A stretch of 52,981 nt of DNA from a virus. Taxonomy: Duplodnaviria > Caudoviricetes. The position numbers were made by a program, and so were the translations under genes. The stretch spans positions 1 to 52,981 of the IMG/VR virus record IMGVR_UViG_3300018080_000230, one strand, 5' to 3'. Positions 27,564 to 44,120 of this stretch are shown here, in pieces; positions within the stretch are counted from its first letter, which is position 1, and each line of letters opens with the position of its first letter. A model generated the notes under the pieces. It had not been told where the DNA came from. It did no database searches and saw only the letters and a program-made list of their open reading frames with translations.

Positions 27564-28940
27564 TTAGAGCTTGCCCTTGACGTTCTTGAAGACCACGAAC
27601 TTGTTGGGAGCGGTCAACTGCAAGGTTACATAAAGATTCTGCAACCACTGGACATACGCCCCCACCCTGGCAAGCGGAAGCTTGGTCAGGGGAGCAAGAC
27701 GCTTGACACAGATCGTATCAAGCAGCGTGTCCACGTCACAGACGAAAGTATTGCTCGTTCCCGGTATGTCTTCATTCTTGTCATCCACGTTCTGAGGCGA
27801 TGCTGAAAAGGCGACCGTCCTCATGTATTTCAGCACCGTGGAGGTCGGGGTCTGCAACCGGTAAATCTTGTACGCCTGGGGAGTCGCCCCCGAACCGTTC
27901 TTGGTCACGGCAATACGGATTCCTTCACCGGAAGCGACCGCAATACCGGATTCTGCGGACGGAGCGGATTCACCCTTATCCGTGATGGCGGTCACGGCAA
28001 AGGTATACGTCCCGACCGCTGCGCCGAACTGCTCATCGGCTGCTGCAATTGTGGACAGGGCAATGGTCGGGGCTAACGGGCCACCCGTTCCCTTCGCTGC
28101 CGTGGGTTTCGCCTGACCTTCTTTAATAAAGACATCGGGCCGGAAAGCAATGTCTCCGAAAGATGTCCGCACACCGGCGGTCGGCGTACCGATCATGATA
28201 CCCTGCGCCGGATTTACGGGCAGGATGAGACGCTGATCGGGCTCAATAGAGGCATCCAGGGAAGACTGAACACCGTGAGCATGGAAGGAATAGTTGGCTG
28301 AACCGTAATTATCGGCAATGATCTGCGCTGCATCCTGGAAGTTAAGCTGTGAAAGCTCGGCGTTTCTCATGTCGATAATGTGATCCGCACTGGCATTTGC
28401 CACCACCAGGGCCAGGAGTCCATCAAACTCCTTGGGGATGTTTGTGGAATTGCCGTTAAAAATGGTTTCTTCCAGTTTCCTGAGAAGAAAGCGTGTACCG
28501 GCAATGGTCTGGACATTGATCGGGCTCTGGATATTTTTCACCTGACCGGACACGTCTGAAACTTTGCGGAGAGTCCGCAAATATTTCACGACCGAATACT
28601 TACGGGTCAGGGTCGGGTCTGATTCTTCGGGATTCTCGATCTCGGAGACAAACGCACCCTCGTTCTCACCGTAGTCGCTCTCGACCGAATATTCTTCCAC
28701 CGTGGAATATGCGGGACGCTGCGGGATGACCTTTACGGCCTTGAGATGTTTTTCGGAAAAGGTCACGTTTTTCAACGTGCCGTCAAGAGACTGCATACGC
28801 AGTGCTGAACCGCCGGTAAAACCGGACGGATCAACTCCCTGACCCGTTTCCAACGCCTTGATAAGCTCCTGAATCTGTTCGGGAGTCGCCGTGGCGTTCT
28901 CAACGTTGTCAGTGTTGGCAAGTTTTTGAATGTCGTCCAT
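27564..28940 (-). CDS. major capsid protein precursor (SPO1/Twort/A511-like)
   Basis: ELIK|ALETGQG...GGSALRMQSLD, AYSTVEEY and EFDGL motifs; inserted FN3-like domain; C-terminal PNKFVVFKNV. Confidence 0.95.
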   Translation of the reverse strand: MDDIQKLANTDNVENATATPEQIQELIKALETGQGVDPSGFTGGSALRMQSLDGTLKNVTFSEKHLKAVKVIPQRPAYSTVEEYSVESDYGENEGAFVSEIENPEESDPTLTRKYSVVKYLRTLRKVSDVSGQVKNIQSPINVQTIAGTRFLLRKLEETIFNGNSTNIPKEFDGLLALVVANASADHIIDMRNAELSQLNFQDAAQIIADNYGSANYSFHAHGVQSSLDASIEPDQRLILPVNPAQGIMIGTPTAGVRTSFGDIAFRPDVFIKEGQAKPTAAKGTGGPLAPTIALSTIAAADEQFGAAVGTYTFAVTAITDKGESAPSAESGIAVASGEGIRIAVTKNGSGATPQAYKIYRLQTPTSTVLKYMRTVAFSASPQNVDDKNEDIPGTSNTFVCDVDTLLDTICVKRLAPLTKLPLARVGAYVQWLQNLYVTLQLTAPNKFVVFKNVKGKL

Positions 28941-28991
28941 TCTTTAAACTCCTTGAATTAAATTGAGTTTGGTTACTTGAATAATTTCCTT

Positions 28992-29879
28992 TTACACAAG
29001 CTTGGCTTCTGTCAGCACTGCCTTGACACCGGGCGTTAGCTGGCCGGTAAGCTCGAAATTGGTCGCCTCCTGGAGACTGATCCGGCCATCGTTGTTTTCA
29101 ATGGCTTTATTCAGGGCATCGACCCTCTGGCCGTGGTTTGCCCCGCCACTGCTTTCATGACCGGCATTGTTCAGCCTTTCGGAATCCAGAAATGATTTCT
29201 CAAGCGGGGATGCATCGGTCGGCTGGCTGGATTTCCTGGGAAGGGGCTGACCGCCGATTTTCTCCACGGTCTCATGTACCGATTTCATAAGGCTTGCCTC
29301 GGCCTTTTTCACTTCGGTAAAAGATTTGTAGAAATCCCCCTGGCCTTTCTCGATGGCCGTAATGGATTTGCTGATCTTGGAAATCTGGCCGTTGATTTTG
29401 TCAATGGCCTTGTTCTGGTTCTGGATGGCCGTACACAGACCCTTGACAAGCTCACTGGATTCGTAGGCTTCCACGAAATCGGCATCCTGTTCAGTCAGCG
29501 ACTTGACAATATCGTTCTCCTCGGAGAGCGATTTTTCGGTATTGGCTCCGGTCTCACCGTCACCGGCTTCTCCTCCGGTCTCACCGTCACCGGTCTCACC
29601 GTCACCGGTCTCACCGTCACCGGTCTCACCGTCACCGGCTTCTCCTCCGGTCTCACCGTCACCGGCCTCTTTTCCGGCCTCGCCACCGGCTTCCCCGCCG
29701 GTTTCTTCGCCTTCGCCCTTGACCAGTTTTTCCATCGTACCCAGGACGGAATCAAGTGATTTCCGTAACGGGTTTTTGTCCTTGTCGTCCTCGACCTTTT
29801 CACCGGTCAGGGACTTGGCGATTTCGGAAAGCTCATTGAGGGATGCAAGAGCCTTCTTCCTCTGTTCCTCTGTAAGCAT
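28992..29879 (-). CDS. scaffold protein
   Basis: Acidic/coiled-coil, between protease and capsid genes, many xxKS/KG sites. Confidence 0.8.
   Translation of the reverse strand: MLTEEQRKKALASLNELSEIAKSLTGEKVEDDKDKNPLRKSLDSVLGTMEKLVKGEGEETGGEAGGEAGKEAGDGETGGEAGDGETGDGETGDGETGDGETGGEAGDGETGANTEKSLSEENDIVKSLTEQDADFVEAYESSELVKGLCTAIQNQNKAIDKINGQISKISKSITAIEKGQGDFYKSFTEVKKAEASLMKSVHETVEKIGGQPLPRKSSQPTDASPLEKSFLDSERLNNAGHESSGGANHGQRVDALNKAIENNDGRISLQEATNFELTGQLTPGVKAVLTEAKLV
29548..29710. repeat. in-frame tandem repeats (15-bp ccggtctcaccgtca x6 interspersed with 12-bp variants) encoding GDGET/GGEA
   Basis: Directly visible within the scaffold gene. Confidence 0.95.
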
Positions 29880-29891
29880 TGGAAAACTCCC

Positions 29892-30848
29892 TTACGTTAA
29901 AATAGTGTAAAGTTTATTTACTCTTTGTCTCTTTTTATCATTCGAGAGCATCTTAACAATTTCACTCGCAACCTTTTCGGATAAACCACGGCACTCTTTA
30001 AGATGCTTCTTAAGTTTTTTTAAGTCGCTGGTCGGTTTGTTTGTTTGATGAGAACAGATTTTACCCGATACATCATCAATGTAAGTTGAACCATCCAGCA
30101 GTTTCAGAAATTCAACGCTTGCTTTCGCAATCTCATTATTCGTGAAAGTGGTAACCTTGAGACCCTTATCAATAGATTGCTTTCTGAGCGTACCTGCCCC
30201 GGATGCTGGCATGATTGCCTGGCCGGTCTCCATTGCCTTTTCAACATCCAGGTAACAAGATGCATAATGAGGACACGACTCAGTACAGGCAATGGAAGGA
30301 TTGAATTGGCAAACACCGGCAAAAGATTTTACAATATCCACCCAGGTATTGCGATTGATCGGATGTTCCGTGATGGCAATGTTCTTGACCCACGCCTTAA
30401 CAATGCGATTGCCTTTGCGTTCCAGGGTCTTGCCCTCTACGCTTGCACCGATCCTGCGTTTTGAACCCACGGATTTAAGAACACGGAGATGCTTGATAAG
30501 CTGCTCTGCAACCGGCTTCTCATTGGACTTGTAAAGAAAACCCTTTACCAGAAGTCCGCAATAACCGGTCTTGGTATTTTTGACAAACTCATAATCGGTC
30601 GGCTCACCGATCAAATACTGAGAGCCCTTATTGTGATCGTAGTTGAAATACCCGCCTTTCATAAGATAATCCAGGATAAAACCTTCCGGCTCAACCACTT
30701 CTTCCTGGATATCCTCAACGTTGTCACCGGCCAAAAGCTTGATGAAATACTTGTTGTCATCCTCGCCACCGGATTTTTCCAGATCGGTCTCCATACCCAA
30801 AGGGATTGAGAAGTCCTGTCCTACCTTGTAGTGTTCCAGATTTTCCAT
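29892..30848 (-). CDS. prohead (maturation) protease
   Basis: D..EE, GYFNYDH, IGEP, GASVEG and NIAITEHPINRNT motifs (His/Ser protease of the HK97/herpes fold). Confidence 0.9.
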   Translation of the reverse strand: MENLEHYKVGQDFSIPLGMETDLEKSGGEDDNKYFIKLLAGDNVEDIQEEVVEPEGFILDYLMKGGYFNYDHNKGSQYLIGEPTDYEFVKNTKTGYCGLLVKGFLYKSNEKPVAEQLIKHLRVLKSVGSKRRIGASVEGKTLERKGNRIVKAWVKNIAITEHPINRNTWVDIVKSFAGVCQFNPSIACTESCPHYASCYLDVEKAMETGQAIMPASGAGTLRKQSIDKGLKVTTFTNNEIAKASVEFLKLLDGSTYIDDVSGKICSHQTNKPTSDLKKLKKHLKECRGLSEKVASEIVKMLSNDKKRQRVNKLYTILT

Positions 30849-30849
30849 A

Positions 30850-31046: not shown

Positions 31047-31271
31047 TCAAATTTTTTTAATCAAAATCAGCCCAAACCCGGAATCCTGGGGATTCGTAAT
31101 TGCACCAAGATGGTTCTCGGTTTTGCAATATTTACAGACCGCCATTACCTGATTATCCCGGATTCTGAGCATTCGGGATTTTATGAGTGGATCGCCGTTG
31201 TCTTTTGCCGTCGCTGTTAAGGATTTTTTGCATCCTTTACACCGGAGCTTTCTGACATCTGTTTTAATCAC
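31047..31271 (-). CDS. Zn-ribbon protein, Mu Com-like
   Basis: 74 aa, LRCKGCKKSL...AVCKYCKTEN. Confidence 0.7.
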   Translation of the reverse strand: MIKTDVRKLRCKGCKKSLTATAKDNGDPLIKSRMLRIRDNQVMAVCKYCKTENHLGAITNPQDSGFGLILIKKI

Positions 31272-33174
31272 CCAGGATTCCTTTTAGGGTTTTTACCAGG
31301 TCAAGCAGCCTAAAAGCGGATTTCGTAATATATTGGGCCAGGTGCTTATTCACATAGATTTTGTTCTGGTAATAGCCTTCTTTTTTCATTGGCTTTTTGG
31401 ACAAAGTAATCACGCCCTGGCGTTTAAACATCTTCACATTGGCCACTCTTTCCTCAAGCTCGTCATAATGTTCTGATGAACTGCTGCGGATATCGGGAGC
31501 CCACCATGAATCCTTAATTGAATTTTTATACTCGTTAGAAGTACGGACAGTGCGCTTGTTCAAGAAAGCATTGACTTTCTCGGCCTCGGCTTTATCCTTG
31601 CATCGGAAAACAATGGCGTATTCTGCGGACTTGCATAACCGGTATCTTTCTTTTTTTCCGGTATCGGGATTTTTCTTGATAACGGATTCTTTGCTGAACT
31701 CCACCGGATCGTCCTCACCCCAGGAATCAGGCCACTGTACTGCGGATGCTTTAACCTTAATATCGTAATCAGGAGTAAGCCCCGCACTTTTAAGCTCGGT
31801 CAAAAGCTGCTTTCCGTGTTCGCCATTAGCTGTATAATTGTGGTACATGAGATTAAATTTATCATTGGCCGTCATGTCATTGATATAATCCTTACCGGCC
31901 ACGTCATAGGAAAAAACATTGTACCCTGTTCTCTCACCCTGCTTTAATGAAATAAGGCTGTCACCTTCTTTCTCCGCTTCTTTCTCAACAAAATTTGAAT
32001 AAGTCGTGTTCTTAAACTTTTTTGCAGCCTTATCAAATTTTGAAAAGTATTCGGTTTCCTTTGGCTTGGCGACTCCGGGTTTTTTCTCAACCACCGGTTT
32101 TTCGCCCGGCCTTTGATGTCTGCGTTTTGTAGGGTCTTTTTTCGATGGCAATAAAGGCAAATCCTTCACACCCTTAACAAGCTCAAAGTTGTCATCAAAA
32201 GACTTGGCGATAGCGATCCCCCGATTCCTGGCCTCTTGCATCAACCTGGCCAGGCGATCCTTTTGGGTTTTCATAAGCTTTTTAGATCGCTTAATCTTCC
32301 CTGCATAAAATCCCAGGAGATACGCCCTGCTTGCGTTTTCTTTCGGCCTGGTTTTATACTTCGATTCAAAGATTCCCTGTTTCCAATCCTTCGTCATGTC
32401 GTTTTGGTTATGCGCTGACTCCTTCATCATTTTTTGCCAGCGTCTTATCCGTGGATTTTTTGTTGATGGAGCAAGATGCAATCTCTCCTTTATTTTTTGA
32501 ATCAGCCCTTTACTCAATATAGGCAGATACATTGGAATATCCCTACCAAGACCTTTGCGGATGATATGAAATCCATGAAGATTTGTGAACATTTTATACT
32601 TATTGCGCTCAAGCAAATCCATGAAGTCATCCATGCTCATTCCTTTGGCTGCGCCCATCCTGACCTTGTAAGCGTATACTTGTTTATCCGGCCAATCCTG
32701 GACAAAACTAAAAACACGCTTCTCGATCTCAGTCTTTGGTTTTTTAACCTTGGATAAGTATTTATCTACTAAAGGCTGTCTCGGTTCTTTTTCGCCCATA
32801 GACTGTGCGTAAGCTGCCCCAAGTTTTGAAACCTCGGTCGCAATCTTACGCTCTGCTGCTGCCTCTTTTTTCACGGTCTCTTTTTTGACCTGTTCTTTTT
32901 TCACTACCCGTTGTTTCGACCTTTTGGCAACAAATTTTTTCCTGGCCTTGATATCAGAACGGTAAACTTTTTTTCCTTCTTTAATCTCGAATTTTTTCTC
33001 TTTCTTCTGTTTTTCTTTTTTGGCCTTTTCACGTTCAGCTTTTCGCTTGGCCAAATACCGTTCCCTGGCCTCGATATCGGACTGATAAAGAACCTTGCCG
33101 GAAGGGAGAATTTTTACAACTCTCCCTTTCCGGCCTATGCCTCTCGGCATAGCCTTTATTAGAATTTTAGGCAT
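31264..33174 (-). CDS. Lys-rich putative internal head (cargo) protein
   Basis: N-terminal ILIK|A, internal K|G/S motifs and repeats; head cluster location. Confidence 0.65.
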   Translation of the reverse strand: MPKILIKAMPRGIGRKGRVVKILPSGKVLYQSDIEARERYLAKRKAEREKAKKEKQKKEKKFEIKEGKKVYRSDIKARKKFVAKRSKQRVVKKEQVKKETVKKEAAAERKIATEVSKLGAAYAQSMGEKEPRQPLVDKYLSKVKKPKTEIEKRVFSFVQDWPDKQVYAYKVRMGAAKGMSMDDFMDLLERNKYKMFTNLHGFHIIRKGLGRDIPMYLPILSKGLIQKIKERLHLAPSTKNPRIRRWQKMMKESAHNQNDMTKDWKQGIFESKYKTRPKENASRAYLLGFYAGKIKRSKKLMKTQKDRLARLMQEARNRGIAIAKSFDDNFELVKGVKDLPLLPSKKDPTKRRHQRPGEKPVVEKKPGVAKPKETEYFSKFDKAAKKFKNTTYSNFVEKEAEKEGDSLISLKQGERTGYNVFSYDVAGKDYINDMTANDKFNLMYHNYTANGEHGKQLLTELKSAGLTPDYDIKVKASAVQWPDSWGEDDPVEFSKESVIKKNPDTGKKERYRLCKSAEYAIVFRCKDKAEAEKVNAFLNKRTVRTSNEYKNSIKDSWWAPDIRSSSSEHYDELEERVANVKMFKRQGVITLSKKPMKKEGYYQNKIYVNKHLAQYITKSAFRLLDLVKTLKGILGD

Positions 33175-33192
33175 TGTGAAACTCCCTGGGAA

Positions 33193-35220
33193 TTAATGAG
33201 CAAAGCCCTGGTCACGACCTTTTTCAAAATCCTCGGCCTCTTTGCTGGCCTTGGTGATATCACCGTCATCCACGGATTTTATCAGGCTTTCACCGATCTG
33301 CCGTTCCGATGATTTGAAAAGGTCTGTGAACATATTTTGGTTTGCATTCATGGATTTGTGAAAATCAACCTCATGCTCCACACCCATGACATTGACCAGA
33401 AGTTTCCCGTTTTCACTTTTCATGATTGTGCCGGAACCCTTGTTCGGGATATGAAAAACACCGCCGACCGGGAACTTGATCGAAAGTGCTTTATAAAGGT
33501 CTTCCACCTTGATACTTTTTTCGGTTTCCATTTCTTCTTTCTCCTCCTTTTCTTCTTCTTTTTCACCAATAGGTTTTCCAATCGGGCCGTTGCCTTTGCC
33601 GACACCAAGGCCACGGCCTTTCCCCTTGGATTTTATTTTACCGCCGGGACAGGATACGGCTTTAATAAGATCGTCCCAATCCTCACCCATGCCGGACAAG
33701 GATTTTTTTGTTTCCTTTCCGATAGTGGTATCAATACCAAATTTCTTGGCTGCTGCTGCAAGTTTGCGCTGGATAAATTTGCGCTCCTCCGGCTTGTACT
33801 TTCCGTAATTTCTCGGCATCCCGAAATACTTGATAGCTGCCTGAGTCCGCTCCTTGGTATCAATCGGATAGCGGTTATTTTTCTCATCCGCATAATCCTT
33901 ATGCTCGGCCTCGGTATATTTTTCCGGCCTCTTTGTAGTAATGGCCTTTTCCAGATTTTCGATGGCCGTATCCAGTGCGGTCACGGATTTTTTCACGCCC
34001 TTGGTTTTATTGTACTTGGCAATAATGCCGTCAAGCTGCTTTTTAAACTGGTTCATCTTGGGATCGTTATTGTCAATCGCTCCCTGGCGTACCGCATACT
34101 CAAGATTCCAGATCAGGTTATTGGCAACCTGGGCCGTCACCTTGGGCTTTGCTTTCTCGGCCATCTGCATGATTTTTTCAATCTCGGCCTTTGTGCAATT
34201 CCCCGTATAGAAATAGGAATTTTTCACCCAATCCTTGATGGAAAGCTTATAGATATCGAAATTCCTTTCCAGGGCTTCCCGGTATTCACGGAGAAGGTCT
34301 TCATACCTCTTAAGAACCTTGGCAGGTCTTACATCGGTCGGTTTCAGTTTTTTTCCGGCTTCATCAACCACGATATTTGTGGCCGGTGTTGACTGAACTA
34401 CTTCTTTTTTGGCCTCGGTAATAATGGCCTTGATTAAATCTTCTGTGGTTTCTGGAAGGTTTGAATAACCGTTTGTTGATTTATTAAAAGCACCGGCTTT
34501 CATAGAGTGTTTTTCGGCCATAAACTTATGATGCTTAAATTTTTTATCACTTTCGTCGTCGGTTTTTTTTGATTTTTTCCTATGACCTTCTGACTCTGTG
34601 TAATGCGCCTTCGCTGCATCCTCATAGTCTTTTTTAGTCCAGCCCTTTTCATGAATCCCAACCTGTTTCTGACTCGATGTCCCATAAATCGGTTTCCCGC
34701 TTCTTGTGTGTCCGATCACCTTTCCACCCCTCGATCCCTCACCTTTTATAGCCTTCTCCAATTCTTCTCCGCTAAAGATTTCTTTCAGCGACTCGATGGC
34801 CTTGACTAATTTCTCCACGTTTACCTCCTGTTTAATTTCTTTTTCACTGGAAACGCTTGATGCGCTCCCTTTCTGGATATCAATGCCGAAAATATTCATA
34901 AGATTTGCGATCACATCTCCGATTGATTTGGCAACCGGGGCTTTTCCGTATGTCTTGCCCTCGGCCTTTCTGGTTTGCGATCTTTTCTGACCACTCATTT
35001 TATGATACCAGATGCTCCCGATTGTTTCACGGATTTGCTCATCCGAATAATCGGGATTACCGGACTTGATTTTCTTATACATCTCATCCCACCATTTTTT
35101 CGGGGGCTTTTTCGACGGTGCGCTTTCGGGCTTGGCCTTTACCAAATTAAGCTCGTCCTGAATAAGTAAATCCAGGTCTGAGGTTGATTTAAGGATGTCC
35201 AGTAGTTTCTCGGACAGCAT
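33193..35220 (-). CDS. multi-module putative internal head polyprotein containing a DUF6582-like domain
   Basis: About 20 xxK|[ASG] motifs; YADEKNNRYPIDTKERTQAAIKYF...AAAKKFGI resembles DUF6582 (from recall). Confidence 0.7.
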   Translation of the reverse strand: MLSEKLLDILKSTSDLDLLIQDELNLVKAKPESAPSKKPPKKWWDEMYKKIKSGNPDYSDEQIRETIGSIWYHKMSGQKRSQTRKAEGKTYGKAPVAKSIGDVIANLMNIFGIDIQKGSASSVSSEKEIKQEVNVEKLVKAIESLKEIFSGEELEKAIKGEGSRGGKVIGHTRSGKPIYGTSSQKQVGIHEKGWTKKDYEDAAKAHYTESEGHRKKSKKTDDESDKKFKHHKFMAEKHSMKAGAFNKSTNGYSNLPETTEDLIKAIITEAKKEVVQSTPATNIVVDEAGKKLKPTDVRPAKVLKRYEDLLREYREALERNFDIYKLSIKDWVKNSYFYTGNCTKAEIEKIMQMAEKAKPKVTAQVANNLIWNLEYAVRQGAIDNNDPKMNQFKKQLDGIIAKYNKTKGVKKSVTALDTAIENLEKAITTKRPEKYTEAEHKDYADEKNNRYPIDTKERTQAAIKYFGMPRNYGKYKPEERKFIQRKLAAAAKKFGIDTTIGKETKKSLSGMGEDWDDLIKAVSCPGGKIKSKGKGRGLGVGKGNGPIGKPIGEKEEEKEEKEEMETEKSIKVEDLYKALSIKFPVGGVFHIPNKGSGTIMKSENGKLLVNVMGVEHEVDFHKSMNANQNMFTDLFKSSERQIGESLIKSVDDGDITKASKEAEDFEKGRDQGFAH

Positions 35221-35623
35221 CGGGAACTCCTTTGTGATTGTTTACCCTATCTTTTATTTCCAGTACAGTGTTTATTGAAATAACGATGGCGAATATAGCC
35301 AATATGACATATAAAAACCATCTGATAAATTCCCTCAAATTCATTTTATATTCTTTTATCCCTTCCTTGACCGATTTGATTTTTTTAATCTCATTAAGAT
35401 CACGGTAGTCATTACCAAGTTTGATTTCAACATCTTCAAACCTGGTTTCACATCTGGATTTTGTCATCTCAAACGTATTCTTAAAAAGATCAACCTTTTT
35501 ATCAAGGGAAGCAATCTGCTCTGTCTGAGCTTTCCTTTCATTAAACAAAGCTTCAATATTGCTTTTTATATTCTGGATAGCTTCATGAATTGAACCAAGT
35601 TGGGCTTCAACTGTTCCGTTCAT
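35189..35623 (-). CDS. coiled-coil protein with one transmembrane helix (holin-like candidate)
   Basis: FLYVILAIFAIVISI hydrophobic helix after a coiled coil. Confidence 0.6.
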   Translation of the reverse strand: MNGTVEAQLGSIHEAIQNIKSNIEALFNERKAQTEQIASLDKKVDLFKNTFEMTKSRCETRFEDVEIKLGNDYRDLNEIKKIKSVKEGIKEYKMNLREFIRWFLYVILAIFAIVISINTVLEIKDRVNNHKGVPDAVRETTGHP

Positions 35624-35976
35624 TATAATCCCTTGTGGTGAGGTTCATAATCAATAAGGGGCATCGGTCTTTTTGATGTCTGGTAGGTCGCCTGGGCGAT
35701 CTGCTCATTGGTCAAATGCCATTCCTCGTTTGCCCGGTCAATTAAGTTATTATAGAATTGTATTGATTTCTGATCCGTCTGCTTATCCCGTTTTTCTTTT
35801 AAGCTTTTCATAGCTTCGGTAAGCTGGCCCAAGTTTTTCTTAAGCTCTGCGGTCGATGCGTCAAGTTGTCTGGTAGCGTCCGTATATTCTCCCATAATGC
35901 CAACGGTATCGGCTTCGAGACTCGTATAAGGCTTTTTGCTGGCCTTGAAAAGATTTAATATTAGTGCCCGGATCAT
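35623..35976 (-). CDS. small putative head protein
   Basis: N-terminal LILNLFK|A motif; coupled to neighbouring genes. Confidence 0.6.
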   Translation of the reverse strand: MIRALILNLFKASKKPYTSLEADTVGIMGEYTDATRQLDASTAELKKNLGQLTEAMKSLKEKRDKQTDQKSIQFYNNLIDRANEEWHLTNEQIAQATYQTSKRPMPLIDYEPHHKGL

Positions 35977-38900
35977 GCTGCTTTCCTCCTTTTTATGGCC
36001 AGCACCGGTTTGACCTCTTTTTTCTTTTTCATAGCCAATACTGGTTTAGGTTCTTCTGCAATGGGTTTGGCCTTGCCTCCCCATTTAATATTTCTCGGTG
36101 CGCCTCCCTTACCGGCAATGGCTTCCAGTAATGTTTCCTCACGTTTCATATTGCTCATGCGCTGGCTATCAATAGGATTCTCGGCATCACTCATGAAAAC
36201 CGTTTCCGCATCCCCGTACTTTTCACGGCCTGTTCTGGCATGACGGCCAGTGGCCTGAATCTTATCCCTGGCCGTCTTTGGGGTCTGGTAAAAAATGGCC
36301 GTATCTGCTCTCTGTGCATTTACACCCGCCGTACTATCACGGTCGATCACAAGAAATTTCACATCGGCCTTATCCCGGAAATTCTTAAGATGCTTGTCAG
36401 CGATTTTCTGCTTTTCCTCTTTCGTGGCTGCTTTCTCGGCCATGTCCGCAACTGTACCGGCACCATAGGTTTTTTCCAAATTTCTCACCACGGATTTCCG
36501 GGCCTCTCCGTCGCTAACATGGATAATAAACTTATGCTTTTTACCCTGTTTAGATTTTGAAAAACGCTGGTCTATCTGCTGCTTTAATGCCTGGAATCTT
36601 CCATTGTGTTTTGCATCACCGGACAAAATAGCCCTTTCTTGAAGAGCATCATAATCCTGTTCAATTTTATCCAGGGCTGCTTTTCGTTGCTTTGCGCTCC
36701 ATTCTTCTTTCTCGGCTTTAAGGTTTAGGGCTTTCCGGTCTTCCCGTTTCCTTGAATTAAGCTCTATGACCTTGAGCTTTTGCTTTTTGGTCATATTGGA
36801 TTTTACCTCAGAAATCTTATTCTTGAAATCGTGCTTTGATTCTGAGGAATATATAAACGGGCTCACATGCTCCTTGAGACCTTCCACCACGGAATTTTCC
36901 CACCCTGTCGTTCCGGTCGCAATAGTATTGTATTTATCCCGGAACTCCTTGGTCGTTCCAAGCTCTTTTGATTTATTGGAAACATACTGCATGATAGCAT
37001 AGGTATCCATCACACCCTTGTTCCCGACCGGCGTACCGGTTAAAGCTAAACGATATTTAAGGTTTTTATCCCTTCGGGTTTTCGTCCTGGTATGTTCTGG
37101 AAGCTGGTCATATTCATCCACCGCTCCGGCCTCGAATCCGGCTGCGTTAATCGCATCGACATTCTTGGCGTAGAAATCATGGGTAATGATTTTCACATCG
37201 ATCTTGGGATTTTTTAAATCCTTAACATTGGTAACAATCTTCCCCTTCATCTTGGTAAAATTATGAAGCTCATCCAATGCCTGTTTTGCGGTTTTGTTCG
37301 GACACGCATAATATTTGTTTAATTTTTTGCCGTCCCGCTTTTCAAGCTCTGAAAACACACCGAAAGAAACCGCCGTCTTTCCACCACCCACTTCAATATT
37401 ATGCAGCATTCCACCGCCCTTATCCTTATCCATTGCTGCAAGTGAGGACCGTATGGCTGTCTGCTGATGACGGTATTTTGGGTCTTTGCTCATATCCAGG
37501 GGGACAATTTTTTTCTTGCCATCCACAACCACGGTTATTTTTTTGTTGAACCTATCCGGTAGCCAGCCCTTCTTATCCGTCTTCCCTTCTTTAACAGCCC
37601 TCAGATGATCCATCCTGGCTTGTTCACGCTGAACAGCCTTTGTATAGTTTTTGAGGGAATCTACCGGAACAGAGATTTTATAACCCACGTCCGTTTTTCG
37701 GACATTGTACTTTACGCCCTTTTCCTTGAGCTTAAGACCAAGACCACGGATAGCCTGGGTAACATTTTTGCGCTCCTTACCTACGTTCATGTCAATCGTG
37801 CCATTCTTAAACCCGGAGTCAAGAATGTGCTTTAGGGTCGCTATTGTTTGAAGACTCCCCATTGCTGTACCAAGATGCAAATTTTTCTGAACCCTGGCCT
37901 CGTTCTGTTTCCGATTAATGGCTGTCCCGGTAATAAGCGCAGCCTCGGCCACAACCTTACCGCTCGGATCGGTGAGCTTTTCCTTGACTCCTCGTTTTTC
38001 TTCAAGGTCTTTTATCACCGCATCATAATGGTCTGCTTTTTTCAAAACGTCCTGGACAAGCTGCGGATGCTGCTTTTCGATATACTTGTCAAGACCTTCC
38101 TTGATATTCTTAAGCTCTCCCGGTGTTTTCCCGGACATAATGAGATGAGCAAGAACCGCCGTACTCCCCTGAATACCAAGACCCTGCATAACCTCTTTCT
38201 TGATTCCCGTACCGCCGAATACTTCTACCTGGACACCGTTCAGGGCTTCAAATGCTCCCTGCTGAATATTTTTCTCCATTCTCGGATCGGTATGGATTCC
38301 CTTTTTCCTGAACTCCTCACCCTCGGTTTTTCCAAGGATCGCAAAATTGATCTCGTCATAGAGTCGCCGGTTATCTTCGATTGCTTTATTGCTCATGAAT
38401 TTTTTACTGGCACGATGCAATAATTCATCCGGGGAAATTTCGACGTGTTCCAGGCCAGATAATGAATCAAGAACCTTTGCGCCTTTTGTCTCAACTTGTT
38501 TGAGCCGTTTATCAATCTTACGGATTTCTCGTAACCGATCATTGTGGGCCTCAATATGGGATTTTAGAGATAAAGCTTCCTCCATTCTCATTGTCATAAG
38601 GTCATGCTTTGCAGCCATGTTCTCGTCTACCTGGCCCGGATCACCTTTTTCATAAAGCTGAGTATTCTCGCCATCACGAAATCTTGCTGTTCCTTTATAG
38701 CTGAGATCGTTATTTTCAATAGCCTGGTCGCCTGATTCCAAAACATTAAAGCCGGGCATTCCCTGTTCTTTACCCATAGACTCGCCCATTTCTTTGCGTC
38801 TGCGGATTTCAAGCATTCGCTGGCGTAACTCCTCACGCTGTTCATCGGTCAAGTCCCTGGTAATCTTTTCTTTGGGTATAGGTTCACCGTCATCGTTCAG

Positions 38901-39809
38901 CTTGAGATTATCCTGTTCCCCTTCGGGCTTAAGGGGCTTTTCGTCCACGGTTTTAATTTCCGGTTTCGGTTCTTCTTTATAAACCTTCTGGACATCCTGG
39001 GGCAAAGATTTAACCTCATCCTCGGTCAAACTATGCCCTACCAGGCTATCCGGTTTCCGGGCCTCGGCTTTAAGGTTATCCCTGGATTTTTTATCAAGCT
39101 TGCTGACCGCCTCATCATTAATGACAAATTTCTTGGGCTCTGGTTCTTGCTTAAACTCATCCAGCTTGCCGGTTTTCTTGGCCGTGGTGATAAAGTCCTC
39201 GCCGGTCGCATGTGCCTGTAACATAATATCAAGCTGCTTATCCAGCTTGCGGATCGCCTTATTGTGTTCCCGCTTAATCTGCTGGTTTTTTCTCCTAACG
39301 GCCTCTGCAATTTTACCTTTCATTTCCTCCGGGGCAACTCCAAGCTTTTTAAATTCCCACTTCTTCTTTGCGATAAAAAGCTTCTTTTCCTTTTCCCCTA
39401 ATTCTTTTTTGACACCTTTCCTGGCAACCACCTTGCTTAATTTTTCCCGCTTTTCCTGGGAGATCGCTCTTTTCTCTTTCCTTAATTGCCTGGCTTCTTT
39501 TGAAAGCTCCCTTTTCTTTTCCCGTTGCTCCTGGCGAATCTTTGCGGTCTTTTTCTTTTTCTCCATATCAAGCTCGATGTGTTCCAGGTGTTTCCGCTTT
39601 GCATTCATGCCACCACCGGCAATGATACCCCATGTTCCACCGGCTTTTTTCTTGATAAGGATATGACGGCCATGCAGGGGGCTGGTATCATCCGTTATTG
39701 TAATCCAGCGTTCTGTTCCCACGGCTGCTGCACCGTAGTCAAAGGATTTAGGTTCTTTGGCCTTCTTTGCCTTTGACAAATCCGGGAATAATGATAAGAT
39801 CAGTTTCAT
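35973..39809 (-). CDS. large SNF2/SF2-like ATPase, putatively virion-packaged
   Basis: Walker A VGGGKT, DEYD, LTGTP, GVNAQ and QATGRHARTG in the C-terminal half; N-terminal DLSK|A and ERWITI motifs. Confidence 0.85.
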   Translation of the reverse strand: MKLILSLFPDLSKAKKAKEPKSFDYGAAAVGTERWITITDDTSPLHGRHILIKKKAGGTWGIIAGGGMNAKRKHLEHIELDMEKKKKTAKIRQEQREKKRELSKEARQLRKEKRAISQEKREKLSKVVARKGVKKELGEKEKKLFIAKKKWEFKKLGVAPEEMKGKIAEAVRRKNQQIKREHNKAIRKLDKQLDIMLQAHATGEDFITTAKKTGKLDEFKQEPEPKKFVINDEAVSKLDKKSRDNLKAEARKPDSLVGHSLTEDEVKSLPQDVQKVYKEEPKPEIKTVDEKPLKPEGEQDNLKLNDDGEPIPKEKITRDLTDEQREELRQRMLEIRRRKEMGESMGKEQGMPGFNVLESGDQAIENNDLSYKGTARFRDGENTQLYEKGDPGQVDENMAAKHDLMTMRMEEALSLKSHIEAHNDRLREIRKIDKRLKQVETKGAKVLDSLSGLEHVEISPDELLHRASKKFMSNKAIEDNRRLYDEINFAILGKTEGEEFRKKGIHTDPRMEKNIQQGAFEALNGVQVEVFGGTGIKKEVMQGLGIQGSTAVLAHLIMSGKTPGELKNIKEGLDKYIEKQHPQLVQDVLKKADHYDAVIKDLEEKRGVKEKLTDPSGKVVAEAALITGTAINRKQNEARVQKNLHLGTAMGSLQTIATLKHILDSGFKNGTIDMNVGKERKNVTQAIRGLGLKLKEKGVKYNVRKTDVGYKISVPVDSLKNYTKAVQREQARMDHLRAVKEGKTDKKGWLPDRFNKKITVVVDGKKKIVPLDMSKDPKYRHQQTAIRSSLAAMDKDKGGGMLHNIEVGGGKTAVSFGVFSELEKRDGKKLNKYYACPNKTAKQALDELHNFTKMKGKIVTNVKDLKNPKIDVKIITHDFYAKNVDAINAAGFEAGAVDEYDQLPEHTRTKTRRDKNLKYRLALTGTPVGNKGVMDTYAIMQYVSNKSKELGTTKEFRDKYNTIATGTTGWENSVVEGLKEHVSPFIYSSESKHDFKNKISEVKSNMTKKQKLKVIELNSRKREDRKALNLKAEKEEWSAKQRKAALDKIEQDYDALQERAILSGDAKHNGRFQALKQQIDQRFSKSKQGKKHKFIIHVSDGEARKSVVRNLEKTYGAGTVADMAEKAATKEEKQKIADKHLKNFRDKADVKFLVIDRDSTAGVNAQRADTAIFYQTPKTARDKIQATGRHARTGREKYGDAETVFMSDAENPIDSQRMSNMKREETLLEAIAGKGGAPRNIKWGGKAKPIAEEPKPVLAMKKKKEVKPVLAIKRRKAA

Positions 39810-39819
39810 TGTTTCCTCT

Positions 39820-40239
39820 TTATGATATATAGCCGTTTATCTCGAACTTGCCGGACGGCATCTTATACCATTGTATATGTAGCTGCTGCTTTATGGGCTG
39901 GTAAAATTCTCCCTTCTTGGTATCCTTATGAGCTATACCGATACTCGCCCTCCCTTTTGCGCCGGTCAAAATCCCCTCGTACTCTGTATTGTCTTCCTGT
40001 AACAATACATAGCCATGCTCATTAAACTTTTTTTCAATCTTATCCAGGGGAATTGTTTTATGATATTCTTTTCCAAGATTGCTTATAAAAGTAACAATCT
40101 TGTTTTTTGATGCCTGGTCGATTTTCTTCCACCGCTTGCCTTTACCGGTCTGCTGCAATGCCAGGCCCGGCCTCCCTTTTATCGGCTGCGCTTTTGACAA
40201 TCCAAGATTGCCAATGGTCTTTTTAAATAACTGGATCAT
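39820..40239 (-). CDS. putative head cargo protein
   Basis: GLSK|A leader, PGLALQQ...KRWKK motif, C-terminal QWYKMPSGKFEINGY domain. Confidence 0.65.
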   Translation of the reverse strand: MIQLFKKTIGNLGLSKAQPIKGRPGLALQQTGKGKRWKKIDQASKNKIVTFISNLGKEYHKTIPLDKIEKKFNEHGYVLLQEDNTEYEGILTGAKGRASIGIAHKDTKKGEFYQPIKQQLHIQWYKMPSGKFEINGYIS

Positions 40240-41132
40240 GAAAACAGTTTTGAGAAAAATCCTTTTTTCTTTTTAAGACTTTCCCCGGTCTGCATTTTCA
40301 TCTCTGCCGGTTTATCGCCATACTTTTTGCTGGCATTGTCAATGGCTTTATCAAGATCGGCTAATGAATTATGCTCCATTTCCAGGGGGCTTGTTTTGAT
40401 ATCCGTGGATTCCAGACCTTCAATGGTTTGCTCAAGCTTATTAACATAGTCGGTCAATTCCACTTTTTCCTTTTTGGCATGGGCTTCCCGGAAAAGCTTA
40501 ACCAGGCGATCCCGCTCGTCAATCATCCTGAGAATAAGGGTCTCAAGATTCCTGATCTCAATGTCTGTTGATTCGGGACGGCTTTTGATTTCTTTATAGG
40601 CATCCTCAATTTCCTTTTTGCGCCGTTCCAGTAAATTCATTTCCCTGGCGATCTCGCCATCCATTTTCTTGTGCTGCGATTCCTTATAGACCTTAAGGGC
40701 GACATCATACTGCGGGTCTTTTTCGTCAAGACAAATAATCTTGCGCCGGTTTCCAGCACCGGTTTCCCAATAACCGATCTGGTACATTCCATCTCTCGCT
40801 CCCCTGGCAAGCTTTTTCCTGAACTGACCACGTAAATGATTATGCACCTGCTTTTCCAGCCGGTTATAATCTATCCATTCCCCGTAAGTAGCCAGGGCCA
40901 CAATAACCATTTCCCGCATCTTGGCAGAAAATTGTTTTGCATCCAGGGGGATCACATCATTTATAGAAAGCTTGGATTTATTGATTTCATCCTTAGTTTT
41001 TTTAACACCGGCCTCGTTCTTGTGGTGTGTTATTTTTTCAATTCTTAATGCCTGGCCGTCCGATGTTCTGATAACCTTTCCCTCTTTTGCAGTTTCCAGG
41101 TCTAATACCGCCGTTTCATTTTCTTTATTCAC
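40236..41132 (-). CDS. hypothetical coiled-coil protein
   Basis: 298-aa ORF coupled to the MuF gene by a GTGA overlap. Confidence 0.7.
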   Translation of the reverse strand: MNKENETAVLDLETAKEGKVIRTSDGQALRIEKITHHKNEAGVKKTKDEINKSKLSINDVIPLDAKQFSAKMREMVIVALATYGEWIDYNRLEKQVHNHLRGQFRKKLARGARDGMYQIGYWETGAGNRRKIICLDEKDPQYDVALKVYKESQHKKMDGEIAREMNLLERRKKEIEDAYKEIKSRPESTDIEIRNLETLILRMIDERDRLVKLFREAHAKKEKVELTDYVNKLEQTIEGLESTDIKTSPLEMEHNSLADLDKAIDNASKKYGDKPAEMKMQTGESLKKKKGFFSKLFS

Positions 41133-42289
41133 GCTGCCTTCCTTTTCTTAAAAGATTCGTACCACTGTTCCCACTTCTTTGAATCTTCTTGTTTCATTCG
41201 TGGATATCCTTTTTCATCTATCCACTGAGATTCTGGAAAGAACTTATTCCAGTTACACCGGCAATGAGGATGCAAGGGTATGGTAGGCATCCATATCATT
41301 GAATCCGGTCTGCGTACCCACTTGCCGGAAACCGGGTCTTTCGTGTAGTGCGCTGCGTACCGGCCATAATTTGTTTTCCCTACCCATATTTGGGTCTTCC
41401 AGTTTCCGGGGGCATCGGTCTTCTGATAAATCTTACCATGAATCATATCCAGGCAATGCTCACACGCATCCGGGGCAGAATCCCCGATCACCCATTCCCC
41501 TTGAGACAGGGCATCAATATACCCGTTTGAATCCCCGTAAGATACCTCGGTCAATGCCACCCTTCTCCAATCCCGGTTATCGCTCCCAAGCTCCTGGAAT
41601 AAATTCTGCCGAATTTTCCCGGTCGCATAATTGTTCCGGTATCCATCAAGAATGATTCTCTTAGTCCCTTCTTTGACCTTATCAGTTTGGGTCTGGATGA
41701 GAGAGCCGGTAAAATCTTTTGAGAAAATCATAGACCTGGCTATGTCCGGTTTTACCCGGTATTTTTTCATGGCTTCAATAACGGTCTTTGGGAGTTTCCT
41801 GGGATCGACAAGTTTGAAAGGCAGGGCTGCGGATTCCCCGGCCCGGATCAATCCCAAAAGATGAGACCGAACAGCCACCATTTCCGCTATTGCCTTATTT
41901 TTTTCCGGGGATGGAAAATACTTTTTCATAAGCCGGTCAATCAGATCGATATCATCCGACTCGTATTTAGGCATGGCTTTTACCAAAGTCTCACGCCGTT
42001 TTCCCAAATTGAATTTTTCCAGAACAGCATTCTGGAAACTTTTCATGGGCTCTGCTAAATAAAGGTAATAGATATCCTCAAGAATAGCCTGGGGTTTATA
42101 GGTGTGAGGATTCCAGATTTTGCTTGAATCTTTTTCTTTAACGGCCTTGATTAATTCACTGGCATCATCTGTAGAAAAAGATAGATAAGAAGTAAAAGCC
42201 TTAAATAAATGAGGGGATAAGGCAAGTCTTTCCGATGCGCTCAAATCATCGTCGAAATTAACCTTGTACGCTTCTGTTAAGCCTTTCAC
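41129..42289 (-). CDS. MuF/SPP1 gp7-like minor head protein
   Basis: RDWRRVALTE, ACEHC and PLHPHCRC motifs; directly after the portal. Confidence 0.85.
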   Translation of the reverse strand: MKGLTEAYKVNFDDDLSASERLALSPHLFKAFTSYLSFSTDDASELIKAVKEKDSSKIWNPHTYKPQAILEDIYYLYLAEPMKSFQNAVLEKFNLGKRRETLVKAMPKYESDDIDLIDRLMKKYFPSPEKNKAIAEMVAVRSHLLGLIRAGESAALPFKLVDPRKLPKTVIEAMKKYRVKPDIARSMIFSKDFTGSLIQTQTDKVKEGTKRIILDGYRNNYATGKIRQNLFQELGSDNRDWRRVALTEVSYGDSNGYIDALSQGEWVIGDSAPDACEHCLDMIHGKIYQKTDAPGNWKTQIWVGKTNYGRYAAHYTKDPVSGKWVRRPDSMIWMPTIPLHPHCRCNWNKFFPESQWIDEKGYPRMKQEDSKKWEQWYESFKKRKAA

Positions 42290-44120
42290 TTATACGCCTT
42301 ATGGTAAAGGAAATGGATTTACCCATTTCCGCACCCTCGGCTGGCTTAAAGCGTCCACCGGTCTTAGCTTCGGGACTTTCCTGTGGTGTAACTTGTTCTC
42401 CCTCGACTGTGCCTTGCTCCCCGGTCGGTTCCTCTCCTGGTGCGCCTTCTTCTCCTTGTGCGCCTTCTTCCATTGAGAACTCACCGCCGGTTTGGGCTTT
42501 AGCCATTTTTTCTGATTGCCAGGCTTGAAAAAGTATCGGGTTGGCCGGGGCATCTAACCATTCCTGGTTTTCTCCTTCCGGTATCTCCTCATCATTCTCC
42601 TTGATAAGTTGACGTACCGTTGACCCGGTTTCCAACCTTAATTTTCTGATCTCAAGTTTATCTTTTGTGCGGTCTTCTTTGACACCCACCCAATAAAATT
42701 CATATTTACCGCCATCGATCTCATTGAGGATATTGTTATTGAAAATATCCGCAATGAAATCCATAAGGGGCTCAAACCCCTTATCTTTCGATGACTTGAT
42801 TTTATCAAGAGGGCTTCCCTGGGATAGCGGAGCAGCACCCATCCGCAATGACTGAAATCCGATCTCCTCCACGTCTATGCGGAAAAGCGCACCGCATATC
42901 TGAGCCATGAAGGTCAAGAATTTATGTTGCTCCTCGGACGTTGCGTTCTTTCCCTTGAACTCCACAAAGGAAACGCCCTTGCCGTCCTTGGTTCTCATAA
43001 TGGGTATCTTGTGCTTGTAATTGGGATTTGACATGGAAAGATAAAACTGGTCTTTGAAATCTTGTAGCTCCTGGGTGTTCCAGTTTCCGATAATGGACAA
43101 GACACCGGCTGGAAGTTTGTTCTCGGAAAAGGTGCTGGTCGAAAAGCTCAATCCGTTTATCCATGCCGTGACCGCTCTGATCAAAAGCTCAAGCTCGGCC
43201 ACGCCATATCCGAAAAACCTGATATCAGTCCTGGGATTCTCAGAAATGTTCAGCATTTCATTTCTGAGAAAGTAAGCCGTATCCCTGTTATAGATGCGCT
43301 GGACATAAACGATGTCATCCGGGTTTACATTCTTGTCCTCTAACAAATCATGGTCATGCAAAAGGGCTGGCTGCATCTGCTGTGGATTTTTCCCCTGGAA
43401 ATAAAGCTCTTTCATGTACCTGGGAACAAGGGGATAAATAGTTGCTGCATCCACGGCATAGAAACTGTGAATATCTCCTTTGCGTGTGCGCTGCAATTCG
43501 ATATTCACTTTGTCACAGGTAAGCCGGTCACGGATAACCTTGGTCACGAATTTTTTAAGGGTGTCCCTTTTCTGAAATCCAACATAACCCTCGTCCCATC
43601 CGGTATGATACAGGAATTGTTCAATCTCGGCCATGCGTTTCTTATCCTGTTCAGTCGCCTTGGCGTTCCGATCCTTGAGCCTTATCCTGTATCCAAGCTC
43701 GTCCAATCCTTCATCGGTCGGCTTTGTGAATCGTACCGCCTGGGCGATCCTGGTAGATATGATAGCTGCGGGGATTTCGGTATCGGCCATTTGCCGAAGA
43801 ACGTCAAAGGTAAGAAAACGCTTTGTGCGGATTTGCCCGTAAGATGAATACTCGTACATATCATACGGGTCTACCACATAGGATTTGAGATCGTCAAGCT
43901 GAACAGTGTTTGAGCGTTTGCGGTCGTTCAGGTCTGAGACTTTTTCCTGAATGTCCAAAACTCTGTTTTGGATATCAAGAGCTTTCTCAATCTGATTCGG
44001 ATCGACCCATTGAATAATTCCACCGGCTTGAATAGGAATTGGGGTATTTGAGGATTTTTGAATATTGGATTTCTTTTTATTCGTAATTCCAAGAGCTTCC
44101 AATTCTTCCAACTGGATCAT
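42258..44120 (-). CDS. portal protein
   Basis: FYAVDAATI, NPRTDI..GYG..ELE, P.GVLSI and IDVEEIGF...SKDKGFEPL motifs. Confidence 0.93.
   Translation of the reverse strand: MIQLEELEALGITNKKKSNIQKSSNTPIPIQAGGIIQWVDPNQIEKALDIQNRVLDIQEKVSDLNDRKRSNTVQLDDLKSYVVDPYDMYEYSSYGQIRTKRFLTFDVLRQMADTEIPAAIISTRIAQAVRFTKPTDEGLDELGYRIRLKDRNAKATEQDKKRMAEIEQFLYHTGWDEGYVGFQKRDTLKKFVTKVIRDRLTCDKVNIELQRTRKGDIHSFYAVDAATIYPLVPRYMKELYFQGKNPQQMQPALLHDHDLLEDKNVNPDDIVYVQRIYNRDTAYFLRNEMLNISENPRTDIRFFGYGVAELELLIRAVTAWINGLSFSTSTFSENKLPAGVLSIIGNWNTQELQDFKDQFYLSMSNPNYKHKIPIMRTKDGKGVSFVEFKGKNATSEEQHKFLTFMAQICGALFRIDVEEIGFQSLRMGAAPLSQGSPLDKIKSSKDKGFEPLMDFIADIFNNNILNEIDGGKYEFYWVGVKEDRTKDKLEIRKLRLETGSTVRQLIKENDEEIPEGENQEWLDAPANPILFQAWQSEKMAKAQTGGEFSMEEGAQGEEGAPGEEPTGEQGTVEGEQVTPQESPEAKTGGRFKPAEGAEMGKSISFTIRRISERLNRSVQG

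Follow-up and report, generated by a model that had tools for sequence, protein, structure and literature searches.

A predicted lysine cleavage code for SPO1-type heads, read from the head module of an IMG/VR phage record

What connects a capsid protein, its scaffold and its protease with a series of otherwise unrelated proteins that start with the same kind of short hydrophobic peptide? The question is raised by the head module of IMG/VR virus record IMGVR_UViG_3300018080_000230 (Duplodnaviria; Caudoviricetes), which was analyzed over its whole length of 52,981 bases (hereafter the window; completeness estimate ~33%) and in which the motif [LIVF]-x-K-[ASG] recurs across the head genes. Overall, we consider it the best explanation, with a probability of about 0.7, that a Lys cleavage code is applied to the scaffold, the protease, the capsid, the portal and an island of candidate cargo genes. 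On sequence comparison, [LIVF]-x-K/[S/A/G] is very probably the cleavage code of an SPO1-type prohead protease of assemblin fold, and the short leaders are likely to be propeptides that would be removed from packaged cargo, while the proposal that the same leaders act as a loading address, made by analogy with phage T4, has slightly less than an even chance of being right. One part of this picture had been recorded earlier, namely that capsids of the A511 type mature by a Lys-specific cut.

The lysine motif and the capsid cut site

Sites in the window were counted against composition-preserving residue shuffles (2000 for counts, 1000 for position). The head block, comprising 13 open reading frames (ORFs) and 5438 amino acids (aa), contains 63 sites compared to 29.2±5.3 in shuffled sequences, and none of the 2000 shuffles reaches 63, so that lysine content alone is not the explanation and the head excess claimed by an earlier sequence-only reading of this DNA is real. 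The 15 window ORFs outside the head and tail blocks hold 9 sites with 8.9 expected. Within the head block the excess is uneven, residing in the scaffold (12 sites, 1.5 expected), the protease (10, 1.8) and two proteins of 675 aa (19, 4.5) and 636 aa (8, 4.0), and it is absent from a 1278-aa protein (3, 7.8), the capsid (1, 1.6) and the portal (2, 2.1). Scanning all patterns of the form a.bc, with no motif assumed, returned L.KA (18 vs 3.6) and I.KS (10 vs 2.3) as the top recurrent patterns of the head block and nothing comparable in the tail block. The sites are also concentrated near N-termini: 11 of the 13 head ORFs have a site lysine at residues 4-31 (1.8 expected; reached by 0 of 1000 shuffles) and 5 of 13 have one at residues 5-20 (1.08 expected; reached by 2 of 1000), while the other 39 window ORFs give 4 vs 3.44 and 2 vs 2.06, respectively.

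The same pattern extends to relatives of this phage. A single capsid sequence used as query found no relatives among viral contigs, but a capsid alignment later retrieved at least 500 IMG/VR loci, of which 80 were analyzed. The 585 ORFs located upstream of the capsid gene (179,680 aa) carry 2068 sites with 665 expected, and the 598 located downstream of it (132,383 aa) carry 303 with 286 expected. Enrichment of the motif upstream is 2.98x when set beside twelve control motifs, which were reversed, shifted in register, given Arg or Glu in place of Lys, or given other classes of residue at P1' or P3 (P1 being the residue before the cut and P1' the one after it). These controls range from 0.79x to 1.49x in the same upstream ORFs, the reversed motif being the highest at 1.49x and h.E[ASG] standing at 0.98x (h, hydrophobic). 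Sites are densest in ORFs at the scaffold position, just upstream of the capsid gene (589 vs 84, 7.0x), followed by the protease (282 vs 67, 4.2x) and the other upstream ORFs (826 vs 418, 2.0x). By analytic expectation, a site lysine at residues 5-20 is found in 137 of 493 unique upstream ORFs (27.6 expected) and in 19 of 532 unique downstream ORFs (18.8 expected), and among the upstream ORFs that are neither scaffold nor protease 89 of 377 have such a leader site (19.6 expected). In an extended logo, a preference for acidic residues at P5/P4 and for Leu at P2' also stands out. A few loci have little or no excess (8 vs 8.4 at locus L058, for example). Positional conservation of internal sites was tried as a strong test and dropped, since the pooled difference is only modest: relative L089, which has a capsid protein of 68% identity, keeps 23 of 38 motif lysines vs 63 of 161 other lysines.

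The clearest single site is in the major capsid protein, whose precursor is probably cleaved after Lys28, judging from the record for Listeria phage A511. The N-terminus reads ...QELIK|ALETG with the lysine at residue 28, as the sequence-only reading had it, and across 22 capsid homologs of 30-88% identity just 17 alignment columns are invariant, those of L26, K28 and A29 included. In GenBank, the mature peptide (mat_peptide) of A511 Cps starts at codon 24 (K23|S24), a boundary that reportedly came from N-terminal sequencing by Loessner and Scherer in 1995. Alignment places A511 ...EDALK|SFTTGYG, window ...QELIK|ALETGQG and SPO1 ...DALNK|ALEAGH in register, so that the N-terminal K-S maturation site which the sequence-only reading had named for A511 is both annotated and matched to K28|A29 of the window. 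All 63 of 63 capsid proteins of the relatives contain h-x-K-[AS]-h-x-x-G within the first 70 aa. Beyond the capsid, the SPO1 scaffold gp3.3 has 11 sites vs 1.3 and the SPO1 protease gp3.2 has 8 vs 1.5, counted with the wider [LIVFM] set.

In the window, the portal and the scaffold carry the motif as had been claimed, the portal with IQKS at residue 20 and the scaffold with its 12 sites. Some of the scaffold sites form a run with seven-residue spacing (residues 172-199), and their number is maintained in two orthologs (11 and 13 compared to 12 in the window, by the [LIVFM] count). The portal ortholog in a relative at 82% (L003) retains ISK|S, and N-terminal sites are also found on the SPO1 and A511 portals. 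As a separate observation, scaffold residues 55-126 (29502-29717, minus strand) form a low-complexity repeat of Gly, Glu, Ala, Asp and Thr with GGEAGDGETG-like units and sites on both flanks, and a comparable acidic stretch, also rich in Gly, lies close to the N-terminus of the scaffold of Bordetella phage PHB04.

The protease is, according to its family match and predicted structure, an SPO1 gp3.2-type enzyme (phrog_1028) with an assemblin/gp21 fold. It has no match in Pfam and none in a PDB sequence search at E<=1. H72 and S136, the latter within G-x-S-x-E-G-K, are invariant in 40 aligned homologs and are the putative catalytic residues. An AlphaFold model gives a core at residues 30-175 with a predicted local distance difference test score (pLDDT) above 90, and with this model as query Foldseek ranks herpesvirus assemblins at the top (probability 0.9-1.0) and T4 gp21 (5jbl_B) at probability 0.80, with TM-scores that are low (0.3-0.44) because the disordered tails are included in the model. 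Three sites of the protease itself, K25|S, the invariant K174|S and K204|A, are placed at, or shortly ahead of, the segments of low confidence that flank this core (1-28, 176-188 and 206-233). Directly behind its catalytic core, the protease contains a copy of the capsid cut site and N-arm (Table 1), which BLASTP aligns to the capsid N-terminus with 41% identity over 44 aa (E 6e-9). Such mimicry is found in relatives as well, with 31 of 50 protease-capsid pairs at z>3 and 20 of 50 at z>5, and the capsid-like segment may be a device for loading the protease into the prohead or a pseudo-substrate.

Leader-bearing proteins between portal and protease

Five of the ORFs that separate the portal gene from the protease gene begin with a short leader ending in the motif (Table 1). 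The N-termini quoted in the sequence-only reading were all found at the minus-strand starts 33174, 35220, 35976, 39809 and 40239, including the leader MKLILSLFPDLSK|A of the 1278-aa ORF at 39809. The starts are credible, since a Shine-Dalgarno box of AGGAG type is found ahead of the capsid, scaffold, 636-, 675-, 117-, 1278-aa and portal ORFs; no such box is present for the 139-aa ORF, whose start overlaps the upstream stop. The five candidates have isoelectric points (pI) of 7.9-10.0 and contain 15-24% Lys plus Arg, with four at pI 9.3-10.0 and the 117-aa protein near neutral. Mean hydropathy is -0.19 for the leaders vs -0.40 for the 15 residues that follow.

The 675-aa protein has the most polyprotein-like layout, with basic segments of 70, 91, 147 and 95 aa that are separated by mostly acidic spacers of 14-23 aa bounded by sites. 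A DUF6582 domain occupies residues 439-497, and a search of the ESM Atlas with this protein returned DUF6582 leads only (0.76-0.77), where stand-alone viral DUF6582 proteins are ~186 aa long. Of its sites covered by alignment, 12 of 15 recur in the ortholog from relative L087 and 6 of 11 in that from L089. The 636-aa protein has no family match in PHROGs, Pfam or NCBIfam and none in the ESM Atlas; its ortholog in L089 (28-36% identity) starts with MRFLIDIIK|G. Similarly, the ortholog of the 117-aa protein in L089 (42% identity) starts with MMRFLLNLFK|A.

Toward its C-terminus, from about residue 780 to 1195, the 1278-aa protein carries an ATPase/helicase module of SNF2 type (Pfam SNF2-rel_dom with 28.9 bits at a cutoff of 24.9), with Helicase_C and ResIII slightly under their cutoffs, and Pfam detects no methylase domain in it. 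Its homologs at 86% and 52% identity have leaders of other length and sequence that end in DL[SI]K|A before the conserved body, and in L003 the leader ends in LLK|A. The low site count inside this enzyme was considered as a possible avoidance of cleavage and rejected: the orthologs have 5 sites vs 6.4 and the partial L003 sequence 4 vs 3.5, so the depletion is not robust. An alignment of this protein used as query found no relatives among genome contigs and metagenome contigs.

Comparison of the 139-aa ORF, whose N-terminus reads MIQLFKKTIGNLGLSK|AQPIKGRPGLALQQTGKGKRWKK, with proteins of relatives supports the polyprotein processing proposed in the sequence-only reading, as leader-bearing ORFs are fused and split at the sites themselves. 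Residues 260-387 of a 387-aa protein (P0033) correspond to residues 12-139 of the 139-aa ORF with 77% identity (E 9e-71), and LGLSK|A of the window aligns to an internal LDLVK|S. One protein body is thus found in two arrangements, on its own behind a leader and as the C-terminal part of a fusion, and the fusion joint falls precisely on a site. In L003, the leader and basic module of the 139-aa ORF start a 742-aa protein (L003_742), which contains two more internal copies, and the neighboring 346-aa protein (L003_346) has two copies of the module, with every copy opening with a site. The internal junctions of the L003 proteins resemble fossil leaders between two sites, for example ...QVKK|SMLLILDIFK|G, and an InPase domain (PF18823, 1.6e-54) lies between two junctions of L003_742. 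Separately, residues 647-687 of L003_742 (positions 6743-8971 of L003) give a sub-threshold ADP-ribosyltransferase match (E 0.0014, 18.4 bits, cutoff 23.4), which recalls the packaged Alt enzyme of T4.

The island is also present in cultured phages of ~90 kb, Mecenats66 (Morganella) and PHB04 (Bordetella), which are the nearer kin of this phage by gene content. In Mecenats66 the gene order runs from the portal through the minor head protein and an SNF2 helicase of 1371 aa (MKRLMIK|A) to the protease, the scaffold and the capsid, and in PHB04 the same place is taken by a methylase of 2097 aa (MIILLTK|A), a helicase of 1518 aa (MKPILFLK|A) and an InPase-like ORF of 169 aa (...VVLLK|A). Both helicases are homologs of the 1278-aa protein of the window. 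The PHB04 scaffold has 8 sites vs 1.4 expected. In the part of the Mecenats66 paper that was available, the terms 'mass spectrometry', 'cleav' and 'prohead protease' do not occur. An additional observation concerns the PHB04 locus (L094, positions 1-1116), where an annotated (p)ppGpp synthetase/hydrolase and a Ser/Thr phosphatase are encoded directly upstream of the minor head protein; both are possible further cargo, and the phosphatase is without a leader site.

The remaining members of the island are more varied. The 386-aa ORF, which the sequence-only reading had called MuF, indeed bears LFKA, LIKA and LVKA at residues 28, 46 and 102; for the label itself there is a sub-threshold match to TIGR01641 (SPP1-gp7; E 0.085, 13.2 bits, cutoff 39.65), and homologs in cultured phages are annotated as 'minor head protein' or, in Yersinia phage fHe-Yen8-01, as 'particle associated protein'. 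Orthologs of the 74-aa ORF occur at 93% and 68% identity, and similar ORFs of 73-74 aa are found in several distant relatives. PHROGs and Pfam contain no family for the 636-, 117-, 139-, 298- and 386-aa ORFs, and NCBIfam gave sub-threshold noise only for 12 head ORFs.

Table 1. Features of the window, with coordinates in nucleotides and lysine sites numbered by residue.
Feature	Position	Strand	Leader or site	Basis or remark
Baseplate, sheath and tube genes	~2.4-27.5 kb	-		PHROG/Pfam
Major capsid protein, 458 aa	27564..28940	-		phrog_752, 3.2e-89
Predicted capsid propeptide, residues 1-28	28857-28940	-	ELIK28/A29	homology
Scaffolding protein, 295 aa, acidic, pI 4.6	28992..29879	-		phrog_15087
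Prohead protease, 318 aa	29892..30848	-		phrog_1028, E 2.7e-41, residues 20-243
Copy of capsid cut site and N-arm within protease, residues ~200-245	30114..30251	-	DVEK/AMETGQ...LRKQSIDKGLKVTTF	
Ten ORFs separating portal from protease	31047-42289	-		~11.4 kb; five leader-bearing
74-aa zinc-ribbon-like ORF, CxxC...CxxC	31047..31271	-	one site, K31, inside ribbon	translation; just upstream of protease
636-aa basic cargo candidate, pI 10.0	31264..33174	-	MPKILIK7/A, nt 33154-33174	
675-aa basic polyprotein-like candidate	33193..35220	-	MLSEKLLDILK11/S, nt 35188-35220	
144-aa coiled-coil-like ORF	35189..35623	-	no site	untagged island member
117-aa cargo candidate	35623..35976	-	MIRALILNLFK11/A, nt 35944-35976	N-terminal site
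1278-aa basic protein	35973..39809	-	MKLILSLFPDLSK13/A, nt 39771-39809	two further sites only
139-aa basic ORF	39820..40239	-	MIQLFKKTIGNLGLSK16/A, nt 40192-40239	then basic KG[RK]PGL...KGKRWK module
298-aa basic ORF	40236..41132	-	no N-terminal leader; first site K52	L003 ortholog 73%
386-aa minor-head-protein candidate	41129..42289	-	K30, K48, K104	cultured-phage homolog annotations
Portal, 620 aa	42258..44120	-	N-terminal site IQK22/S, leader nt 44055-44120	phrog_15361, phrog_12
664-aa ORF in large-terminase position, upstream of portal	44346-46340	-		conserved in L003

Competing explanations and related systems

If the Lys code operates as proposed, the protease would remove the 28-residue capsid propeptide inside the prohead, chop the scaffold at ~12 sites, cleave its own chain at the borders of the catalytic core and trim the N-terminus of the portal. 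It would also remove amphipathic leaders of 7-16 residues from the basic 636-, 675-, 117-, 1278- (SNF2 ATPase) and 139-aa proteins, and multi-domain members, including the 675-aa protein and larger polyproteins in relatives, would be cut at internal junctions. Before cleavage the leaders would probably serve as capsid-targeting peptides in the manner of T4, and the trimmed basic proteins would probably remain on the DNA and be delivered into the host alongside it; we infer the targeting, packaging and injection of cargo by analogy with such systems. The motif itself is more likely the cut site, with any address located in the amphipathic leader before the motif or elsewhere in the protein. A broader and more tentative proposal, which we would put somewhat below even odds, is that this is a lineage-wide cargo code readable from sequence (at least 500 IMG/VR contigs, Mecenats66 and PHB04), in which leaders load DarB-like methylases and helicases, InPase and other effectors, the protease excises the leaders and cuts fossil-leader junctions, cargo genes interconvert between stand-alone and fused forms, and the protease rides in by means of its copy of the capsid site and N-arm.

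Several points weigh against a Lys code in the form given here. The sole cleavage datum is the GenBank annotation of A511, whose capsid is ~30% identical, and the A511 site A-L-K|S has Leu at P2, not P3, such that the rule of a hydrophobic P3 is not universal within this capsid lineage; moreover, the A511 scaffold (2 vs 1.4) and protease (4 vs 1.1) have little excess. The sequence-only reading had described the motif as sparse in tail genes, which is roughly right, yet the tail block (24 ORFs, 8281 aa) still has 34 sites vs 23.9±4.6 (p=0.017), or 1.44x the expectation. Within the island, the 144- and 298-aa ORFs are without a leader, conservation of the internal sites in the 636-aa protein does not exceed that of its other lysines (2 of 6 vs 35 of 89), and the sites of the 386-aa ORF and the 74-aa ribbon are placed within conserved folded regions and might escape cleavage altogether. 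The counts in relatives are based on crude ORFs, taken on the plus strand as the longest from the first start codon, and on expectations from products of residue frequencies instead of shuffles. Calling the longest ORF can only blur N-terminal signals; many of the loci are related to each other, and the family-wide counts therefore do not represent independent events.

The alternative that survives best, although we regard it as unlikely, is that the sites are cut and the leaders are not addresses. In that case the protease would trim whatever the prohead contains, cargo would enter by other contacts, with its body or a basic post-cut module binding the scaffold, the portal or the minor head protein, and the leaders might be propeptides that silence enzymes. 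This is difficult to reconcile with leaders that are kept in kind across orthologs at 27-52% identity and with fossil leaders that persist inside fusions, which are hard to explain if leaders are idle before cleavage, and T4 provides the precedent of a leader of ~10 residues that is sufficient for targeting. Nevertheless, leaders have no strict consensus beyond hydrophobicity, and the sequence following the cut is conserved and recurrent (KG[RK]PGL...KGKRWK, and K/A[LM]xxGQ...LRxES in capsid and protease), making it a possible docking element. Pointing the same way is DarB of phage P1, for which the available part of the report describes that the first 30 residues target a reporter and the first nine are not enough (PMC9024508).

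Far less probable is that the motif is a structural by-product of helix register, amphipathic or coiled-coil, in head proteins rich in Lys, and that proteolysis is limited to the capsid propeptide. The seven-residue spacing of the scaffold sites does resemble coiled-coil heptads, and both the reversed motif in relatives and the motif in the window tail genes exceed expectation by a factor of nearly 1.5. However, an excess of ~3x is obtained only with the claimed orientation, register and residues, as Arg or Glu at P1, D/E, T/N/Q or hydrophobic residues at P1' and shifted versions give 0.8-1.3x. Furthermore, the sites cluster at N-termini and where model confidence drops on either side of the protease core, ORFs that are otherwise independent are fused exactly at them, and the capsid site coincides with the annotated A511 maturation cut. 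That the leaders are artefacts of ORF calling, with true starts further downstream, or signals for export by the general secretory (Sec) or lipoprotein pathway is hardly credible: the first ATG, GTG or TTG after a stop was used, in-frame alternatives exist at codon 9 of the 636-aa and codon 11 of the 1278-aa ORF, and the leaders are hydrophobic, but strong Shine-Dalgarno sequences lie 5-9 nt before the ATG of the 636-, 675-, 117- and 1278-aa ORFs, the starts and leaders are kept in orthologs and annotated cultured phages, at 7-16 residues the leaders are not long enough to be Sec signals, and the proteins are highly charged, have no further hydrophobic segments and share the motif with the cytoplasmic capsid, scaffold and protease.

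The closest functional parallel to the proposed Lys code is the capsid-targeting sequence of T4 (on IPI-III and Alt) and its protease gp21, which cuts after Glu in Leu/Ile-x-Glu. As in T4, short N-terminal leaders on unrelated basic proteins of the window (five head-module ORFs, K at 7-16) end in the cleavage motif of the capsid and scaffold, and the heavy cutting of the scaffold core and self-destruction of the protease seen in T4 are predicted here. Unlike in T4, P1 is Lys followed by Ser, Ala or Gly, the capsid and protease are of SPO1 type, relatives contain fossil leaders and polyprotein junctions, and the system is known from sequence alone; the cargo ORFs match no T4 family in PHROG or Pfam. 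The system works like that of T4 and is not a member of it.

With the Herelleviridae, including A511 and SPO1 (gp3.1-gp3.2-gp3.3-gp6.1), the window shares a homologous capsid and protease, an aligned cut site and, in SPO1, an equally site-rich scaffold and protease. The genes for portal, protease, scaffold and capsid directly adjoin one another in SPO1 and A511, whereas the window has ten ORFs inserted between portal and protease, and capsid identity is ~30% (784 phage records, including SPO1, CP-51, A511-type and other Herelleviridae, all <60%), which sets it apart from the contiguous head module and close capsid identity of that family. The three small A511 ORFs directly upstream of the portal (gp80-82) have no N-terminal leader site.

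Other large phages process or package head proteins in comparable ways. The protease of SPN3US, a phiKZ-like phage, is T4-like, with a motif that ends in Glu. Many SPN3US head proteins have propeptides that are removed at a short motif by this protease (gp245), with extra copies of the motif inside the propeptides, according to the part of the study available (PMC10052503); phiKZ-like propeptides are long, unlike the leaders of 7-16 residues in the window. In phage P1, the very large methylase/helicase-type protein DarB is packaged via an N-terminal signal and the capsid protein is cleaved between E120 and S121, and the available part of that report includes no account of removal of the DarB leader (PMC9024508). 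The gene for DarB adjoins those for the portal and protease, and the 1278-aa SNF2 protein of the window and the methylase and helicase pair of PHB04 look alike in kind; in contrast to DarB and to the PHB04 dyad, the SNF2 protein of the window lacks a methylase domain.

Polyvalent proteins with SNF2 ATPase and InPase domains have been predicted to be packaged and injected, and their processing was ascribed to built-in zincin-like metallopeptidase domains, as stated in the portion of the survey covered here (Iyer et al., 2017; PMC5512222). Enzymatic domains of polyvalent type are present in the head module, with SNF2 in the window and InPase in L003_742. No zincin-like peptidase was detected in the cargo ORFs of the window, L003 and L089, and a SprT-like match in a 248-aa ORF of L089 is sub-threshold (21.4 bits, cutoff 25.6). 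With one recognizable domain per window protein, the cargo is of the polyvalent kind, without being classic many-domain members. In the literature covered, whose scope excluded most subscription journals, no Lys-code leader and cargo system is described for SPO1-type heads.

If the Lys code holds, it would provide a simple rule to predict proteins that are packed in the capsid and delivered together with the DNA by a large, mostly uncultured group of phages, whose injected proteome could be read from sequence alone, with the leader as a portable packaging tag. The predicted cargo (SNF2 ATPases, DNA methylases and pyrophosphatases) likely consists of counter-defence enzymes. The code would extend the 'target, pack, trim' principle of T4 to SPO1-type heads with a different protease specificity, and would explain how multi-domain polyvalent proteins are taken apart without a built-in peptidase. 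A capsid-loading leader could also serve phage-based protein delivery, as the signals of T4 and phage P1 already do, and cultured relatives (Mecenats66 and PHB04, with SPO1 for the core code) make the code directly testable.

Genome context

The long ORFs of the window are all on the minus strand, and PHROG and Pfam scans recover a myovirus-type gene order. Megablast of the whole head region against 50,697 phage records gave no match at the DNA level. The 664-aa ORF in the position of the large terminase has no match in PHROG, Pfam or NCBIfam and none in a PDB sequence search at E<=1, and contains 0 motif sites (2.3 expected). Two further genes of the window lie outside the head block: a Dam-type N6-adenine DNA methyltransferase at 47492-48046 (minus strand; PF05869, 8.1e-16), and an endolysin-like ORF at 23994-24554 (minus strand; phrog_894, 2.9e-15), embedded among structural genes with the head module on one side and the tail module on the other.

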